Origin: Candidatus Moraniibacteriota bacterium
GTDB lineage: Bacteria; Patescibacteriota; Minisyncoccia; JAHIHE01; JAGLIN01
Direction of reading: 5' to 3'
DNA length: 27,834 nucleotides
Assembly (NCBI GenBank): GCA_030641185.1
Contig: DAOWHY010000016.1
Coordinates: forward strand, 1-27,834
The notes beneath the pieces are model-generated. The model did no database searches. It worked only from the letters and a program-made list of their open reading frames with translations, and was not told where the DNA came from. Both the position numbers and the translations under genes were made by a program. Position 1 is the stretch's first letter, and every line of letters starts with the position of its first letter. Positions 1,004-27,834 of this stretch are shown piece after piece.

Positions 1004-1033
1004 AATATTATATTAAATATTAAAACAATCTTG

Positions 1034-1113
1034 TGCAGGCGGTGGGAGTCGAACCCACACCCCGAAGGACACGGTCCTAAGCCGTGCGCGTATGCCAATT
1101 CCGCCACGCCTGC
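1034..1113 (-). tRNA. tRNA-Leu, anticodon UAG
   Basis: The reverse complement reads GCAGGCG-TG-GCGGAATTGGCATACGC-G-CACGG-CTTAGGA-CCGTG-TCCTTCGGGGT-GTGGG-TTCGACT-CCCAC-CGCCTGC-A. It folds into a full cloverleaf with a 7-bp acceptor stem, a TAG anticodon followed by G37, and the long variable arm expected for Leu. CCA is not encoded. Confidence 0.9.
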
Positions 1114-7680: not shown

Positions 7681-7703
7681 AATGATATTTATTTAAATAC
7701 CTC

Positions 7704-7829
7704 TTGTCGTTGCGAGAAGCCCGAGCGAGCGTAGCGAACGAAAAGGCGACGAAGCAATCCCGTGATTAAATTCTTTGCGCGTAGTTACGGGATTGCTTCG
7801 TCGCTCTGCGGAGCTCCCCGCAATGACAA
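7704..7829. mobile_element. Family A palindromic element, gene-less copy A1 (inverted relative to the others)
   Basis: The sequence is ttgtcgttgcgagaagcccgagcgagcgtagcgaacg...gacgaagcaatcccgt-[loop]-acgggattgcttcgtc...ccccgcaatgacaa. It fills the spacer between the Wzz-like stop and the GT4 no. 2 start. Confidence 0.85.
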
Positions 7830-10357: not shown

Positions 10358-10494
10358 TGTCATTGCGAGAAGTGAAATTATCCGCAGGATAATTGAATGA
10401 CGAAGCAATCCCGTAACTACGCGCAAAGAATTTAATTCCGGGATTGCTTCGTCATTCCGCTTCGCTACGCTTAACTCCGTTCCTCACAATGAAA
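10358..10494. mobile_element. Family A palindromic element, gene-less copy A2
   Basis: The sequence is tgtcattgcgagaagtg...gacgaagcaatcccgtaactacgcgcaaagaatttaattccgggattgcttcgtc...cctcacaatgaaa. It overlaps the last 14 codons and the stop codon of the solute-binding protein gene. Confidence 0.85.
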
Positions 10495-17324: not shown

Positions 17325-17402
17325 AAATTTGTCATAGCGAGCTTGTCGAACTATGATAAATTTAGCGTGTTTGCCGCCCTTCGACAAGCTCGGGGTGACA
17401 CG
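17325..17402. repeat. Family C palindromic element, copy C1
   Basis: aaatttgtcatagcgagcttgtcgaactatgataaatttagcgtgtttgccgcccttcgacaagctcggggtgacac has the 12-bp stem gagcttgtcgaa/ttcgacaagctc. It aligns with 22018-22094. Confidence 0.8.
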
Positions 17403-19303: not shown

Positions 19304-19453
19304 AAACCTGTCATTGCGAGGAATGGAACGGAGCGATAGCGTAGTGGAATGACGAAGCAATCCCGTGACTATACACAAAGAATTTAATTACGGGATTGCT
19401 TCGTCGCCTTCTCACTCGCTACGCTCGCTCGGGCTTCTCGCAATGACAGGTTT
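19304..19453. mobile_element. Family A palindromic element, gene-less copy A3 (most complete)
   Basis: The sequence is aaacctgtcattgcgaggaatggaacggagcgatagcgtag...gacgaagcaatcccgtgactatacacaaagaatttaattacgggattgcttcgtcgccttctcactcgctacgctcgctcgggcttctcgcaatgacaggttt. Confidence 0.9.
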
Positions 19454-20420
19454 ATTTTTGTAGTCCGCCTTTGATCTCTCTCAACAATTTTTTAACTCTA
19501 CCAATACTATCTTCATCATAAATCGAAATAGCTAAAACATTTGGGTTTATTTTTTTCAATTCTCCAACTTTTTCTTTAATTTCTTTTTCACCAATCAAAT
19601 CAGTTTTAGTTAGAAAAATATATTCTCGTTTTCTTGCTAATTTCAATTCATATTTTTTAAGCTCATTTTTAATTGCTTGATAATCGTTTGATAAATTTTC
19701 TGATTCGGAAGAAATACAGTGAATTAAAATCTCTGTTCTTTTTATGTGCCGCAAAAATTTTATTCCCAAACCTTTTCCAGAAGAGGCGCCTTCAATTAGT
19801 CCCGGGATGTCCGCGATGATCAGGCCGTAAAAATCACCAAGGTTCGGCTCAAGGGTCGTGAACGGGTAAGCAGCAACTTTTGCTTTTGCTTTTGTTAAAG
19901 CATTTAACAAGCTTGATTTGCCGGCACTGGGCAAACCGATTAAACCTACATCGGCGATAAGGCGAAGCTCCAGAAGGAAATCGAAGTCTCTTCCATTTCC
20001 CCCCTTTTCAAATTCTTTTGGCGTAGTGTTTATTGAAGATCTAAAAAAATAGTTTCCCTTGCCTCCTTTTCCGCCTCTGGCTATTAAAATTTTCTCTTCG
20101 TTTTTGACAATTTCCACATCTCTGCGCGTATTCAAATTATGAGCCACTGTTCCAATGGGAACTTTCAAAATTAAATCTTTTCCATTTTTGCCGTCAAGAA
20201 TCTTATTTCTTCCAGCAACACCGTCTCCGGCTAAGAATTCTTTTTTAAAGCGAAACTTATTTAAAGCGGTTAAATTTGAAGTTCCCTCCAAATAAACATT
20301 TCCGCCATTTCCGCCATTTCCGCCAGTCGGACCCTTTTCTCCTTTATTTTTATTAAAAGCAACGCAGCCGTCTCCTCCATTTCCGCCTTGCAGTTTGATT
20401 TTTACTTCGTCAATTAACAT
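19452..20420 (-). CDS. obg: GTPase Obg/CgtA
   Basis: MLIDEVKIKLQGGNGGDGCVAF... is the Gly-rich Obg fold, followed by GLPSAGKSSLLNALT and DIPGLIEGA. The track start at 20489 is rejected because the extension reads into repeat D. Confidence 0.9.
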   Translation of the reverse strand: MLIDEVKIKLQGGNGGDGCVAFNKNKGEKGPTGGNGGNGGNVYLEGTSNLTALNKFRFKKEFLAGDGVAGRNKILDGKNGKDLILKVPIGTVAHNLNTRRDVEIVKNEEKILIARGGKGGKGNYFFRSSINTTPKEFEKGGNGRDFDFLLELRLIADVGLIGLPSAGKSSLLNALTKAKAKVAAYPFTTLEPNLGDFYGLIIADIPGLIEGASSGKGLGIKFLRHIKRTEILIHCISSESENLSNDYQAIKNELKKYELKLARKREYIFLTKTDLIGEKEIKEKVGELKKINPNVLAISIYDEDSIGRVKKLLREIKGGLQK

Positions 20421-20601: not shown

Positions 20602-20680
20602 TAGATTGGAAAGCAGTGTATTTTCAGTGTATAGTCTTTTTGCCAATAAATCAAGAACATAGAGTTGAACAGAAAATTTA

Positions 20681-20711
20681 TAAAAAGAGAGGTGAAAAAA
20701 CCTCTCTTTTT
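20681..20711 (-). terminator. Intrinsic (bidirectional) terminator after the pilin-like array
   Basis: agagagg-(8 nt)-cctctct is flanked by an A-run and a T-run. It lies about 25 nt past the stop at 20735. Confidence 0.7.
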
Positions 20712-20734
20712 ATATTTAAAATATGTTCACTGTC

Positions 20735-21094
20735 TTATGCTGTTAGAATCTGAGTAACAACAATAACCATAGCGTAAGCAAGACCAGCGACAACCATACC
20801 TATTATACCGTAAGAGATAGTCTTTTTAGCACTAGCAACAGCATCTTCGTTTCCTCCGGCAGTAAGATATTGAACACCTCCCCAGATAATTACTAGAGTA
20901 GCAATAATAGCAATGAAACCGAGAATGTAATTGGTAATGTTCATAACTGCTGCTTCTATATCATCTGGAACATTATCTGGCGGATTTTCATATCCCCATC
21001 CCTCTGATGGATCAGCGCTGGCAACGGAAGCAGAAAGAGCAAAAGCGTAAACGAGCAGTGAAGAGATTGACAACTTCTTCATTAAATTTTTCAT
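20735..21094 (-). CDS. TrbC/VirB2-like small membrane protein, paralog 1
   Basis: The signal peptide ends in SVASA. It is followed by NITNYILGF, TM1, WGGVQYLTAGGNEDAVASAKKT and TM2. The ATG at 21094 lies 6 nt after AGGGGGTG. Confidence 0.7.
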   Translation of the reverse strand: MKNLMKKLSISSLLVYAFALSASVASADPSEGWGYENPPDNVPDDIEAAVMNITNYILGFIAIIATLVIIWGGVQYLTAGGNEDAVASAKKTISYGIIGMVVAGLAYAMVIVVTQILTA

Positions 21095-21163
21095 TTTTTT
21101 CACCCCCTTTCAAATTATTAATTTATTTTTTCTATTTAATTTTGTAGAGTTTTATTATCCTTA

Positions 21164-21577
21164 TTATACAGGTGGAGGTGGAGGTGGGGCAGGAGCTAAT
21201 ACAATAGTTACAATAACATTTACTAACGCGTAAGCTATTCCAGCTATCACCAAACCTATTAAAGCATAGGTAACCACTCGTTTTCCTGTTGTAGCTCTAG
21301 TTTCATCTCCAGCCGATCCTATATACATCACTCCTCCCCAAATTACCATCAAAACCGCAAGCATTGCCACAAATCCGAGAATCCAGTTCGTCAGATTTAG
21401 AACAGCATTATCAAAACTTTCAGGAACACCCGTTGGCGGAGTGCCCATCGCAAAACCCTCAGCAAAAGCATTATTTATAAACAAAAACATTGACGACAAC
21501 ACGGCAAGCACACCAACGATCGCGCTTTTAATGGCGGTTTCTTTTTGATTAATTATTTCCATTGTTTTTTGTGCCAT
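21164..21577 (-). CDS. TrbC/VirB2-like small membrane protein, paralog 2 (poly-Pro tail)
   Basis: The signal peptide ends in NNAFA. It is followed by NLTNWILGF, TM1, WGGVMYIGSAGDETRATTGKR, TM2 and APAPPPPPPV. Confidence 0.7.
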   Translation of the reverse strand: MAQKTMEIINQKETAIKSAIVGVLAVLSSMFLFINNAFAEGFAMGTPPTGVPESFDNAVLNLTNWILGFVAMLAVLMVIWGGVMYIGSAGDETRATTGKRVVTYALIGLVIAGIAYALVNVIVTIVLAPAPPPPPPV

Positions 21578-21620
21578 ACTTTTTTGTTAATTTTTAATTA
21601 ATAAAATTTTAAAAAAATTC

Positions 21621-21983
21621 TTAAAGTATTTCGACAACTATAACATTTACAATAGCGTAAGAAACTCCTGCTATAAATACCCCTATCAACGCGTAATAAA
21701 TTATTTTCTTTGACAAATCCGCTTTTTGAACATCCCCGGAAGAAGCGATATAATTCAAACCGCCCCAAACTAATGCCAGCACCGAAACTGCCAAAGTAAA
21801 TTCAAGAAGCCAGTTGGTCAGATTTAATATTCCTACATCAAGATCTTCTATTAAGCTACCGCCTGGATTATCTGGAAGCACCCATCCGTCAGCAGTGGCA
21901 ACGCGAGTTATTATTGTTGACATTGCCAAACAAACAGCAATCGCGCAAAAATTTAAATACTTATTATTCTTTATTATCTTCAT
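21621..21983 (-). CDS. TrbC/VirB2-like small membrane protein, paralog 3
   Basis: The signal peptide ends in RVATA. It is followed by NLTNWLLEF, TM1, WGGLNYIASSGDVQKADLSKK and TM2. Confidence 0.7.
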   Translation of the reverse strand: MKIIKNNKYLNFCAIAVCLAMSTIITRVATADGWVLPDNPGGSLIEDLDVGILNLTNWLLEFTLAVSVLALVWGGLNYIASSGDVQKADLSKKIIYYALIGVFIAGVSYAIVNVIVVEIL

Positions 21984-22017
21984 TACCTATATTATTACAT
22001 TTTTTATTTACGCAGTC

Positions 22018-22094
22018 AAATTTGTCATAGTGAGCTTGTCAAACTATGATAGATTTAGCGCGCTTGCCACCCTTCAACAAGCTCAGGATGACAG
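22018..22094. repeat. Family C palindromic element, copy C2
   Basis: aaatttgtcatagtgagcttgtcaaactatgatagatttagcgcgcttgccacccttcaacaagctcaggatgacag lies between pilin-like paralogs 4 and 3. Confidence 0.8.
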
Positions 22095-22122
22095 TTCTTT
22101 TATATTTTGTTTTTTAACATTT

Positions 22123-22512
22123 CTAATGAAAAATCGTATCCAGAATTTTTATAATAGCAAAAGAAGTTCCGGCTACGAAAATTCCGAGCAGAGCATACTT
22201 GACAATTTTTTTGGCGTTTTCCGTTTTTTGCATATCTCCTGAAGAGGAAACATAATAAAGACCTCCATAAATTAACGCCACCACTGAAATTGCGACAGCA
22301 AGTTTCAGAAGTTCGCTAACCGCGGCATCTATCACATCCGGGATTAAACTATCTGGCACACCAGCAGGTAAACAGTTGACAGGATCGTTAAACATATTCT
22401 TGCCGCCTTCATAATCACACTCTGCTCCAGTATAATTAACGAACAATAAAGAAGAAACTACAAAAATACTTAAAACAAATAATGTGGTTTTTTTTAAAGT
22501 TAAGCTTTTCAT
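22123..22512 (-). CDS. TrbC/VirB2-like small membrane protein, paralog 4 (most divergent, two Cys)
   Basis: A signal peptide is followed by a longer N-terminal region with C..C, then TM1, YGGLYYVSSSGDMQKTENAKK and TM2. Confidence 0.65.
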   Translation of the reverse strand: MKSLTLKKTTLFVLSIFVVSSLLFVNYTGAECDYEGGKNMFNDPVNCLPAGVPDSLIPDVIDAAVSELLKLAVAISVVALIYGGLYYVSSSGDMQKTENAKKIVKYALLGIFVAGTSFAIIKILDTIFH

Positions 22513-22603: not shown

Positions 22604-22978
22604 TTAGACAGCTTTATTTTTGTAATCCTCAATCGCCTTATGTAAAGCATCAGCCGCCAAATTGGAACAGTGCATTTTCATAGGTGGAAGTCCTTCCAGA
22701 CTTTCTGCCACATCTTTGTTGTTAATTTTCATTGCTTCGTCTAAAGTTTTTCCCTTGGCCAAATCTGTGATCATTGAAGAAGTGGCAATTGCCGCCGCGC
22801 ATCCCAGCGTCTCAAATTTTATATCTTTAATTATGTTTTTTTTCTTGTCTGCTTTAATATAAACTTTCATTATATCTCCGCAAACAGGATTTCCCACTTT
22901 TCCAATTCCATCGGCTGATTTAATTTTACCATAATTATGAGGATTTGTAAAATGTTCTATTACTTTTTTAGTATACAT
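22604..22978 (-). CDS. iscU: IscU/NifU-like Fe-S cluster scaffold
   Basis: MYTKKVIEHFTNPHNYGKI...GNPVCGDIMKVYI...TLGCAAAIATSS...MHCSNLAADAL contains the three conserved Cys. The ATG at 22978 is preferred over the TTG at 22993. Confidence 0.85.
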   Translation of the reverse strand: MYTKKVIEHFTNPHNYGKIKSADGIGKVGNPVCGDIMKVYIKADKKKNIIKDIKFETLGCAAAIATSSMITDLAKGKTLDEAMKINNKDVAESLEGLPPMKMHCSNLAADALHKAIEDYKNKAV

Positions 22979-22996
22979 ATTTTTAATTTTCAATTT

Positions 22997-23493
22997 AAAC
23001 CTGTCATTGCGAGGAGCCTGAACGAACGCAGTGAGTGAGATGGCAACAAAGCAATCCCGAAACTACACGCAAGAATCAAATTATAAAGTTATTTTATTTA
23101 TTTTAAACCCTTAGCTTCCTCGATCAAGTCCTTTCATTCTGGATTCATTTTTTCAATAAATTCTATTTTCTTTTTTCTTGATCCCGCTTTTATTTGTTTT
23201 TCTCTGGTGATAGCTATTTTAATATCATTACATACTTCATAATAAACGATCGTGTCTATATTATATTTTGCGGTAAAACTGTTTTTATCAATTTTACTTT
23301 TATGTTGATATTCTCTTCTAAACAAATCGTTAGTTACTCCAACATATACCGTGGCGTGTCTTTTGTTAGTGGCTATATAAATATAATATTGCTTTTCTTT
23401 CATATCCTAAACAAAAGTTTTATTGGCTTAGATGCGGGATTGCTTCGTCGCCTTCTCACTTGCTATGCTCGTTCGGGCTCCTCGCAATGACAA
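22997..23493. mobile_element. Family A element carrying a GIY-YIG nuclease gene between inverted arms of about 60 nt
   Basis: The left arm is aaacctgtcattgcgaggagcctgaacgaacgcagtgagtgagatggcaacaaagcaatcccg. The right arm is gcgggattgcttcgtcgccttctcacttgctatgctcgttcgggctcctcgcaatgacaag. They are reverse complements with roughly ten mismatches. Confidence 0.75.
23134..23403 (-). CDS. GIY-YIG nuclease family protein (UPF0213/COG2827-like, 89 aa)
   Basis: YYIYIATNKRHATVYVGVTNDLFRREYQHKS...ITREKQIKAGSRKKKIEFI contains the GIY...YVG, R and E/K-rich tail hallmarks. Confidence 0.8.
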   Translation of the reverse strand: MKEKQYYIYIATNKRHATVYVGVTNDLFRREYQHKSKIDKNSFTAKYNIDTIVYYEVCNDIKIAITREKQIKAGSRKKKIEFIEKMNPE

Positions 23494-23500
23494 GTTGCAT

Positions 23501-24973
23501 TTAATCACCACTCTTTTCATAAACGTTAGCCGTTTTTAAAATCGTTTTTTCATCAAAATGTTTTCCTATAATTTGCATTCCAACAGGCATTTCTACATTT
23601 CCATTTTTTGGTTTGGCAAAACCACAGGGAATGGAAATAGCTGGAACGCCAGCTAAGCTTGCGGCGCTTAAGAAAATGTCTTCCATATATAATTCAAGCG
23701 GATTGTCGCTGTGCTCGCCAATTTTGAAAGCGACATTTGGTGAAGTTGGAATTATTATGACATCAACTTTTTCAAAAGCGTTGTCAAAATCTTTTTTAAT
23801 GAGCGCTCTCGCTTTTTGCGCCTGCAAATAATACGCGTCATAATATCCGCTGCTCAAAGCGTAAGTTCCCAGTATAATTCGCCGTTTTGCTTCACTGCCA
23901 AATCCATTTGCTCTTGATTTTAAATAGACATCCTCTAAACTTTTGACTTTTGAATTTTGACTTTTGACTTCACTGTAGCCGTATTTTATACCATCAAATC
24001 TAGCCAAATTAGAACTTACTTCGGATGGCATGATTATATAATAAGTCGGAACCGCGTATTTTGTGTGAGGCAAGCTGATTTCAACTATTTCCGCTCCCAA
24101 TTTTTCTAATTTTTCAATTGCGTTTTGAACAGCGTTTTTAATTTTGCTATCTAATTCTTCAATAAAATATTCTTTTGGAACGCCTATTTTTAAACCTTCA
24201 ATATTTTCGTTTTTTATAAACTCAAAATAATCATCAACTTTTCGATCAGAAGATGTCGCATCCATCTTGTCTTTTCCCGCTAATTCTTTTAAAAGCAAAG
24301 CGGCGTCAGAAACATTTTTTGCCATTATGCCTGGACAATCGGTTGAAGAAGTCATTGAAATAAGCCCATATCTTGATATTCTTCCGTAAGTCGGTTTTAG
24401 TCCGACAACTCCGCAAAATGCCGCCGGCTGTCTTATGGATCCGCCAGTGTCAGTTCCGATCGAGTAAAAACATTGATCCGATGCAACGGAAGACGCAGAT
24501 CCCCCAGAAGATCCTCCGGGCACTCTTTCTAAATCCCAAGGATTATGAGTTGTAAAAAAATCAGAATTTTCTGTGGAAGATCCGTGCGCGAAAGCGTCAC
24601 AGTTTACTTTTCCAAGCATCACCATTCCGCGATTTTTTAATTTTGATATCAAAGTTGCGTCATAGGGCGGAATGTAATTCTTCAAAATATTGGACGCGGC
24701 CGTGGTCAAAACGTTTTTTGTTAAAATAATATCTTTAATAGAACACGGAATTCCCAGTAATAAATTATCTTTTTCATCGCCAGATTTAATTTTTCGATCC
24801 GCTTTCTCAGCTTGCAGCAATGCGTAATTTTCCGTCACGGTAATAAAAGATTTTATTTTATCATCCGTTTTTTTTATTTCATCCAAACAAGCCGTTGTTA
24901 ATTCAACGGAAGAAAGGTCTCTGTTTTTTAGCCTATCACTGGCTTCGGTTATAGTTAGTTCGTTTAGTCTCAT
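23501..24973 (-). CDS. gatA: Glutamyl-tRNA(Gln) amidotransferase subunit A
   Basis: The amidase signature GGSSGGSASSVASDQCFYSIGTDTGGSIRQPAAFCGVVGLKPTYG is present. Confidence 0.95.
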   Translation of the reverse strand: MRLNELTITEASDRLKNRDLSSVELTTACLDEIKKTDDKIKSFITVTENYALLQAEKADRKIKSGDEKDNLLLGIPCSIKDIILTKNVLTTAASNILKNYIPPYDATLISKLKNRGMVMLGKVNCDAFAHGSSTENSDFFTTHNPWDLERVPGGSSGGSASSVASDQCFYSIGTDTGGSIRQPAAFCGVVGLKPTYGRISRYGLISMTSSTDCPGIMAKNVSDAALLLKELAGKDKMDATSSDRKVDDYFEFIKNENIEGLKIGVPKEYFIEELDSKIKNAVQNAIEKLEKLGAEIVEISLPHTKYAVPTYYIIMPSEVSSNLARFDGIKYGYSEVKSQNSKVKSLEDVYLKSRANGFGSEAKRRIILGTYALSSGYYDAYYLQAQKARALIKKDFDNAFEKVDVIIIPTSPNVAFKIGEHSDNPLELYMEDIFLSAASLAGVPAISIPCGFAKPKNGNVEMPVGMQIIGKHFDEKTILKTANVYEKSGD

Positions 24974-27110: not shown

Positions 27111-27310
27111 GTTTTTATTGGAAGTGATGCTATTTTAATATTATTTAGGCTTTTTATTGATTAATCCGCGGAAATAAGTTTTTGCGCCACTGCGGATTAT
27201 AAAATATAAAGTTTGAAGGGAAAAAAGAAATTAGTATTAACAAAAACAATTTGATTTTAGTTATTGCTTCCATAAAAGAAGTAAAATTTTTTTGTAAGTC
27301 GCTTCATTTT

Positions 27311-27834
27311 ATGAGAAGTCATGTTACTGTTTTTGCAGTAATTTTTTTATTAGGATATGTTTCAATTGCAAACACCACTTCCAGCTATGATTTCCAGACA
27401 GGGAGTATGATGTTTAATTATCTAGATGGAGCGAACGGAAATAGCAACGAAAGAAAAAATAATATAATTATAAAAAATCCAGAAAATGTTACGGGCGATG
27501 ATGTTATGTCAAAAAGCCATACCCCCATCATTAGAATTGCCAGCGCCGATTCTGGCCTTATGGGAAATATGAGCGCTGGCGCGGATGAAGATGAAAACGG
27601 AAATTATGAGAAACTAAATGAAATGGGTATTGAAAAAATTTCCTCTCTTTCTCTTGTGCAAAATAATTCATTTTTATCTCCAGCCAGCTATTACGATGAA
27701 TCATTGGCCGATCTTAAATACGGTATAGTTAAATATGAAGTTCGATCTGGAGATTCTCCAGGTTCTATCGCGACATCTTTTGGAATATCAACATATACTA
27801 TTTTATGGGAAAATGATTTGAAAGTTGGTGATAT
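27311..27834 (+). CDS. Secreted LysM-domain protein, N-terminal part (runs off the window)
   Basis: Hand translation gives MRSHVTVFAVIFLLGYVSIANT... as a signal peptide. It ends in YEVRSGDSPGSIATSFGISTYTILWENDLKVGD, which is a LysM motif. Confidence 0.7.
   Translation, partial: MRSHVTVFAVIFLLGYVSIANTTSSYDFQTGSMMFNYLDGANGNSNERKNNIIIKNPENVTGDDVMSKSHTPIIRIASADSGLMGNMSAGADEDENGNYEKLNEMGIEKISSLSLVQNNSFLSPASYYDESLADLKYGIVKYEVRSGDSPGSIATSFGISTYTILWENDLKVGD

Follow-up and report, generated by a model that had tools for sequence, protein, structure and literature searches.

The contig DAOWHY010000016.1 of a Candidatus Moraniibacteriota metagenome-assembled genome (MAG), analysed here over its entire 27,834 bp and referred to as the window, carries four tandem open reading frames (ORFs) on its minus strand (span 20735–22512), which almost certainly encode members of the T4SS_pilin family (PF18895). 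Comparison with related loci indicates that the four genes form an old, collinear set of paralogue types, A-B-C-D, constrained by purifying selection yet faster-evolving than their neighbours. The interpretation we favour, with confidence only a little above even, is a composite one, in which type D provides the major subunit and types A–C the minor subunits of a single heteromeric pilus or conduit, built by a type IV secretion system (T4SS) encoded elsewhere in the genome. Tandem diverged pilin paralogues and distant secretion machinery are both documented in Patescibacteria (Quinonero-Coronel et al. 2025, PMC12102498), so the locus is not unusual; it is an ordinary further example of the patescibacterial VirB2-like pilin arrays, to which the major/minor reading and the synteny with iscU and an envelope cluster are modest additions.

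Family assignment and protein architecture

The genes were numbered P1 to P4 in the original prediction; read along the minus strand, type A is P4, B is P3, C is P2 and D is P1. They are listed here together with the ribosome-binding site of type D.

22123–22512, minus strand: pilin type A (P4), first gene of the array, 129 aa; predicted signal peptide ending ...NYTGA↓EC
21621–21983, minus strand: pilin type B (P3), second gene of the array, 120 aa; predicted signal peptide ending ...RVATA↓DGW
21164–21577, minus strand: pilin type C (P2), 137 aa, or 132 aa from a second ATG at 21562; predicted signal peptide ending ...NNAFA↓EG
20735–21094, minus strand: pilin type D (P1), last gene of the array, 119 aa from ATG 21094; predicted signal peptide ending ...SVASA↓DP
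21100–21110, minus strand: Shine-Dalgarno site AAAGGGGGTGA, 6–7 nt upstream of the type D start codon, duplex energy −12.3 kcal/mol

The original prediction, made from the letters alone, had called four TrbC/VirB2-like pilin genes here, and both the coordinates and the call are borne out. In a profile search all four products exceed the PF18895 gathering score of 26.6 bits (P1 46, P2 40.2, P3 29.5 and P4 28 bits), an assignment of the same genes that also appears in precomputed annotation. Against TrbC/VirB2 (PF04956, gathering score 27.9 bits), P1 (38.2 bits) and P2 (31.1 bits) lie above threshold, P3 (15.2 bits) lies below it and P4 gives no match, type D (P1) having the top score of the four on both families. 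Chance ORFs are ruled out by the PF18895 matches, by collinear orthologues in ~25 other contigs and by the ratios of nonsynonymous to synonymous substitution (dN/dS) described below. The position of the Shine-Dalgarno site fixes ATG 21094 as the true start of type D, the full ORF (20735–21103) counting 122 aa from a GTG; for type C, gene callers prefer the 132-aa start.

The four proteins follow a common plan of N-terminal signal peptide, acidic segment of 20–34 aa, first helix, loop and second helix, with the loop consensus (W/Y)GG..Y...(S/G)G(D/N)......K. An AlphaFold2 model of P2 (63 homologues), with a mean pLDDT of 79 that rises above 90 in the hairpin, places helices at residues 2–37 (the signal peptide), 55–86 and 92–126, that is, a helical signal peptide and, after it, a hairpin of two helices. 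The combination of a type I signal peptide, a hydrophobic two-helix hairpin and a short polar loop is the layout by which VirB2-type pilins are recognised, and it is seen here in the sequences and in the P2 model, with cleavage predicted. The (A/T)-x-A sites, followed by D or E, are conserved across orthologues. An A-x-A ending had been claimed for all four signal peptides, which is correct for P1, P2 and P3, while P4 ends in T-G-A; likewise the N(L/I)TNW motif thought to be common to the set does not extend to P4, which reads VSELLKLA. Just past the cleavage site types B–D have in common a W..P..P..VP.D motif. The acidic N-terminal segment of type A contains a conserved Cys pair (CDY..G.NMFN.P.NC-LPAGVP) and type C ends in the tail APAPPPPPPV, and with these the two Cys and the poly-Pro tail of the original prediction both hold. 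Net charge is −3 to −7 in the N-terminal segment and 0 to +1 in the loop.

P2–P4 are 29–39% identical to P1. Between paralogues, identity is 21–35% in the N-terminal segment, 25–53% in the core and 19–35% in the signal peptide, so the divergence that had been described as concentrated in the N-terminal segment is concentrated there only weakly. Three of the proteins also match NCBIfam NF045849, the Mbov_0395 family of pilin-like conjugal transfer proteins, below its cutoff of 40 bits (P1 26.2, P2 25.7, P4 22.1 bits; E = 5e-6 to 9e-5), with no match for P3; these are related proteins and not members of that family. A tblastn search against phage genomes gave no match.

The wider family is very large, a profile search recovering 58,797 clusters (50% identity) at E <= 1e-3. 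Many of the top matches are single polypeptides with 3–8 hairpin modules behind one signal peptide (P0078, P0080, P0089, P0091); natural 'poly-pilins' of this kind include one of 364 aa with four modules and one of 820 aa with eight. These single-chain fusions imply that adjacent hairpins pack next to each other and have their two termini on one face. The pilin hairpin also occurs as the C-terminal part of much larger secreted proteins, one of 545 aa with a beta-propeller-like region and one of 669 aa, both encoded in the related locus L026 (191–1828 and 4394–6403).

Conservation of the array in related loci

The comparison set comprises ~25 related loci, re-annotated with a hidden Markov model from an alignment of the homologues; their sources are contigs in ENA and NCBI and 24 GTDB-representative genomes. 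The scan of representative genomes, among which the window's own genome is not included, has a top match of 71% identity. Nearly every related locus contains 4–5 same-strand PF18895 genes (range 3–7). Among 18 related arrays, type A of the window finds its best match in the first gene of 17, type B in the second gene of 16, and type D in the last gene of essentially all. Median identity to the window orthologue is ~46% for A, ~50% for B, ~54% for C and ~64% for D, making type A the least and type D the most conserved type. Since orthology follows array position down to ~45% identity, the paralogues predate the clade and each has been retained, and it is on this comparison of sequences that we regard the array as an old set of four types.

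Variation on this plan is seen in types A and C. In five-gene arrays the extra gene is a duplicated type C with a Cys-rich N-terminal extension. Type A is recognised by the signature C-D-Y-x-x-G-E/x-N-M-F-N-C/x-P-x-D/N-C-L-P-A-G-V/I-P, and in some relatives it has acquired an added Cys-rich domain of 100–170 aa; Cys-rich type A forms of 232–285 aa are found, for example, in L003 (8721–9419) and L035 (5051–5908). Some genomes with an array also encode, elsewhere, a solitary pilin gene of 203–209 aa with a Cys-rich N-terminal domain (L016, 7527–8156; L014, 5131–5742; L020, 65–694), one of which adjoins gyrA; a single MAG (MAG229) carries both the array locus L010 and the solitary gene of L016.

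Measured against the closest relative, L033, the four pilin genes have dN/dS of 0.11–0.22, with dS of 0.33–0.53 and dN of 0.04–0.11; over the whole comparison dN/dS is 0.11–0.24. For the same genome pair the flanking iscU and obg have dS of 0.12 and 0.16, respectively, and dN of 0–0.02, so that the pilins have diverged about three times as far as these neighbours. The four genes are constrained by purifying selection and yet evolve faster than those beside them. The elevated dS of the pilins hints at a possible exchange of alleles by recombination at the array.

The types also differ in their translation signals. The Shine-Dalgarno site of type D stands out from the regions upstream of A, B, C, IscU and Obg, where duplex energies are −1.8 to +2.8 kcal/mol, and energies of −7 kcal/mol or lower occur in just 3 of 19 other window genes. 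In 17 of 18 relatives the motif GAAAGG(A/G)GGTGAAA stands ahead of the final gene of the array (−12 to −13 kcal/mol); it is found before another array gene only in L023, where it precedes a duplicated D-type gene, and in L027, where it precedes the second gene. A strong Shine-Dalgarno site on type D alone, kept in 17 of 18 relatives, suggests that the types have fixed and unequal roles.

Links to type IV secretion and models of function

Arrays of this kind have been surveyed by Quinonero-Coronel et al. (2025), who searched 3,035 Patescibacteria genomes with PF18895 and PF04956 and found VirB4 in 2,417 assemblies (PMC12102498). VirB2-like pilins were present in 1,948 VirB4-positive assemblies, near virB4 in 1,135 of these and therefore away from it in ~40%, and 441 tandem arrays of 2–11 genes were recorded, with a within-array identity of 25% on average and 54% at most; in Paceibacteria, virB4 tends to sit near dnaA/dnaN (PMC12102498). 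Their array criterion, at least two PF18895/PF04956 genes in tandem or one gene apart with low mutual identity, describes the four genes of the window with their 29–39% identity to P1; the accessions of sister MAGs do not occur in the supplement of that study. The absence of nearby machinery, which the original prediction took to be the unusual part of the locus, is thus commonplace in the phylum, and across the clade of the window the array stands apart from T4SS genes. In Ca. Southlakia epibionticum the predicted pilin subunits that the T4SS cluster contains are, as a set, essential (Wang et al. 2023, PMC10633639), and a 2025 review counts six VirB2-like pilins in this cluster and considers it the one monoderm T4SS that possibly builds a pilus (PMC12857230). 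The T4SS and pilin array are essential in the one Patescibacteria species tested, a picture that the window locus leaves unchanged.

The window array resembles the published patescibacterial arrays, including those of S. epibionticum and the TM7x 'Sec-secreted array', in its PF18895 and PF04956 matches, its tandem same-strand genes and low within-array identity, and in lying on a Patescibacteria chromosome with no relaxase context, where such arrays are often not beside virB4. It differs from the S. epibionticum array in that, as in its Paceibacteria-type clade, it adjoins iscU and an envelope-glycan cluster and not a T4SS cluster. With VirB2 (the Agrobacterium T-pilin), TrbC (RP4) and TraA (F) the window proteins share a long type I signal peptide, a small hairpin protein and a short, polar, basic loop, as well as PF04956 matches for P1 and P2. 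In contrast to those pilins there are four paralogues rather than one, in a monoderm host and without an adjacent virB operon, there is no evidence of cyclisation or acetylation, and the predicted mature length is 89–99 aa compared to ~70–74 aa, the difference being due to the acidic N-terminal extension of 20–34 aa.

The family can be tied to T4SSs more directly outside the window. The only relative of P1 in a plasmid database is an unannotated gene of Streptomyces sp. BHT-5-2 p1 (NZ_CP081497.1; locus L036, 2183005–2191663), 36% identical over 80% of its length and scoring 71 bits with PF18895. It lies directly upstream of genes encoding a 767-aa unknown protein, a member of the PrgI family, an ATPase resembling VirB4, a coupling protein and a Replic_Relax protein, a gene content that identifies the locus as an actinobacterial MPF-FATA-type conjugation cluster with a VirB2-like pilin. 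Together with the NF045849 matches and with S. epibionticum, this cluster ties the PF18895 family to MPF-FATA-type T4SSs, even though the window array itself is unlinked. The Streptomyces pilin and the NF045849 proteins of Mycoplasma integrative and conjugative elements (ICEs) share with the window pilins a monoderm setting and the same hairpin module; they are, however, single-copy genes in conjugation clusters with VirB4, coupling protein and relaxase, whereas the window array consists of four chromosomal genes with none of these nearby. The Streptomyces pilin fits poorly with the claim that Gram-positive T4SSs are without virB2 homologues, and the Streptomyces PF18895 pilins and Mycoplasma ICE matches are relevant to the question of whether VirB2-like pilins are truly missing from monoderm MPF-FATA systems.

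A large part of bacterial diversity belongs to the Patescibacteria, which seem to live on other cells. In the assembly we propose, each pilin would be exported through Sec, and signal peptidase I would cleave it after (A/T)-x-A, leaving a mature product of 89–99 aa with its acidic N-terminal segment outside, two hydrophobic helices and a short K/R-bearing loop facing the cytoplasm, an N-out/loop-in/C-out topology suggested by the charges of segment and loop. Type D would most likely be the abundant major subunit, given its strong ribosome-binding site, found in this type alone, and its highest conservation, and types A–C would most likely be low-copy minor subunits, the putative disulfide-type Cys module of type A and its larger Cys-rich domains in relatives being suited to tip or adhesion functions. 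An MPF-FATA-like T4SS (VirB4, PrgI/VirB3, VirB6, VirB8), encoded elsewhere in most Patescibacteria and typically near dnaA, would then draw the subunits out of the membrane and polymerise them as one heteromeric pilus or conduit, and the resulting structure may serve contact or exchange with a host cell. The same logic, one abundant subunit encoded together with conserved low-copy paralogues, is found in type IV pili and type II pseudopili, although their subunits are unrelated in fold and processing (class III signal, one helix and a globular head), so the likeness is one of logic and not of homology. The A-B-C-D order, purifying selection, the ribosome-binding site of the last gene and the Cys-rich additions to the first together offer a testable hypothesis of one major and several minor subunits for arrays of this kind.

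Several observations weigh against this interpretation. VirB4, VirB6, PrgI, VirB8 and coupling-protein genes are absent from the 27.8-kb contig, which agrees with the original prediction where it had looked (VirB4, VirB6 and coupling protein), and in more than 24 related loci the ±10 kb around the array are free of T4SS genes, the conserved linkage being to iscU and the envelope-glycan cluster and not to secretion genes. The proposed dependence of the array on a T4SS rests on phylum-wide statistics, and the distinctive Shine-Dalgarno site of type D predicts subunit abundance rather than measuring it. A Foldseek search of the P2 model against the PDB yielded no significant match to solved VirB2/TraA pilins: the best E was 0.6, the best fold matches were generic hairpins of membrane proteins, ATP synthase subunit c among them, and no pilin ranked in the top 50. 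Sequence and profile searches of the PDB likewise found no pilin; simple hairpins are poorly discriminated by such searches. Large ORFs flanking the related arrays were considered as possible T4SS ATPases; they are PNPase, IleRS, GyrA, AsnB, TopA and LigA, plus one unannotated protein of 1,281 aa.

Another explanation is a T4SS-independent envelope module, whose hairpin proteins would form oligomers within or upon the cytoplasmic membrane with no need of VirB4, serving as a pore, an anchor for displayed domains or an envelope scaffold and working with the products of the adjacent cell-surface glycan genes (DUF4012, GT4, Wzz). Most related loci read DksA-LspA-SBP-RNaseH-GT4-Wzz-GT4-GT4-DUF4012-(IscU)-pilin array, where SBP is a solute-binding protein, all of them are free of T4SS genes over the surrounding 10 kb, and the fusions to large extracellular domains (545 aa and 669 aa) and chains of 3–8 hairpins resemble designs for membrane anchors or oligomeric rings, to which the generic membrane hairpins among the fold matches may be added. 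We nevertheless judge this explanation unlikely. P1 and P2 score above threshold with the TrbC/VirB2 profile, the same Pfam family is found inside bona fide T4SS clusters in Streptomyces and S. epibionticum, and in the window's own subclade the array has been split from the DUF4012/GT4 block yet retained, which argues that the linkage is not obligatory.

A slightly less probable alternative is a variation repertoire, as proposed for such arrays by the authors of PMC12102498, in which interchangeable major subunits diversify the exposed surface and so help to escape defence or to fit different host strains, an idea put forward for the VirB2 paralogues of Bartonella and Anaplasma. It draws on the low identity of the paralogues to P1, on their acidic N-terminal segments, which differ from one another, and on the roughly threefold faster evolution of the pilins relative to iscU and obg. 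Interchangeable subunits are difficult to reconcile with positional orthology across genomes and the retention of each paralogue, with dN/dS below 0.25 and no segment convincingly above 1, or with the unequal roles suggested by the type D ribosome-binding site, and silent-cassette or inversion machinery was not seen in the window. While arrays in the literature have been framed as a repertoire, the data for the window point to four fixed positional types with a strong Shine-Dalgarno site on the last gene alone, and major and minor subunits fit better than an antigenic-variation repertoire. The variable surface-filament function put forward in the original prediction is weakened by the same observations.

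The four types, one major and three minor, may also make up a heteromeric surface filament or membrane conduit that has become T4SS-independent in this clade, needing only Sec and signal peptidase and assembling by itself, or with a partner such as the co-inherited DUF4012/envelope-glycan genes. We hold this to be more improbable again; if true, it would represent a VirB2-fold appendage without a VirB4 motor. Finally, an assignment to type IV pilus (PilA-like) pilins, or to other small secreted non-T4SS proteins merely resembling VirB2, might be entertained given that Patescibacteria are rich in type IV pili and the window proteins are small, secreted and hydrophobic, but it is effectively refuted: the class III prepilin motif (G↓F/M-x-x-x-E) is absent from all four sequences, which instead carry a long leader of type I with (A/T)-x-A, there are two transmembrane helices rather than one N-terminal helix and a globular head, and the only Pfam matches are PF18895 and PF04956, with no pilin, pseudopilin or N_methyl match for any of the four.

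Flanking genes and repeat elements

The remaining features of the array region are as follows.

22604–22993, minus strand: iscU (NifU_N, E = 4e-48), conserved upstream neighbour of the array
22018–22093, no strand assigned: palC, a 76-nt palindromic repeat in the A–B intergenic spacer, hairpin −26 to −30 kcal/mol
20679–20714, minus strand: intrinsic-terminator-like hairpin with T-run that closes the array, 15-bp stem, −18.9 kcal/mol, z = −6.8

The window has a GC content of ~0.33 and a gene content typical of bacteria of the candidate phyla radiation, its closest named relatives being Candidatus Parcubacteria, Paceibacterota and Pacebacteria MAGs; the only other recorded copy of the contig is shorter (21.6 kb). 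On one side of the array the gene order is DUF4012, three GT4 glycosyltransferases, Wzz, CDP-alcohol phosphatidyltransferase, RNase H, solute-binding protein, LspA, DksA, S1, UPF0102, LepA and Obg, followed by the four pilins; past the array come IscU, GIY-YIG, GatA, GatC and a spermine-synthase-like protein. The neighbours iscU and obg had been named correctly in the original prediction. The subclade of the window is characterised by the order GatC-GatA-IscU-array-Obg-LepA, shared with L033 and L032. The related arrays are almost always downstream of iscU and usually of the DUF4012/GT4/Wzz envelope cluster; in most of these loci iscU is the gene immediately ahead of the array, and it keeps that place through three distinct wider contexts. 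The gap between iscU and the array is 91 nt in the window and 21–43 nt in relatives, and the two are probably co-transcribed. A sigma-70-like match (TTGACT-17-AATAAT; 22019–21991, minus strand) overlaps the palC element in the window.

TraX is the F-pilin acetylase family. Two relatives carry a gene for a membrane acyltransferase of this family (PF05857) just ahead of gatC-gatA-iscU-array (L004, 252–920; L035, 1529–2194); none was seen in the window.

The palindromic element that had been noticed between P4 and P3 is real, and a second palC copy, 88% identical, lies at 17325–17400. In the pilin A–B spacer (21984–22122 in the window) palindromic repeats of differing families have landed repeatedly, with palC in the window and in L035 (5917–5970) and palA in L033 (2067–2164), L034 and L008 (4090–4186). 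Upstream of iscU, an 89-aa GIY-YIG nuclease gene (23134–23403, minus strand) is flanked by ~68-nt inverted repeats (22998–23065 and 23429–23496; 82% complementary; overall span 22996–23505) of the same family as solo palindromic elements at 7693–7802, 10360–10492 and 19337–19454. In L033, GatA is directly followed by IscU, ~60 nt apart, indicating that the GIY-YIG cassette was inserted into the genome of the window, perhaps as an autonomous element whose derivatives resemble miniature inverted-repeat transposable elements (MITEs). Towards the contig ends there is a tRNA-Leu (1033–1113, minus strand), and both a left-end ORF (within 1–1113) and a right-end LysM-like ORF (27256–27834) run off the contig; in the relative L003 a LysM-CHAP hydrolase is encoded near the array.

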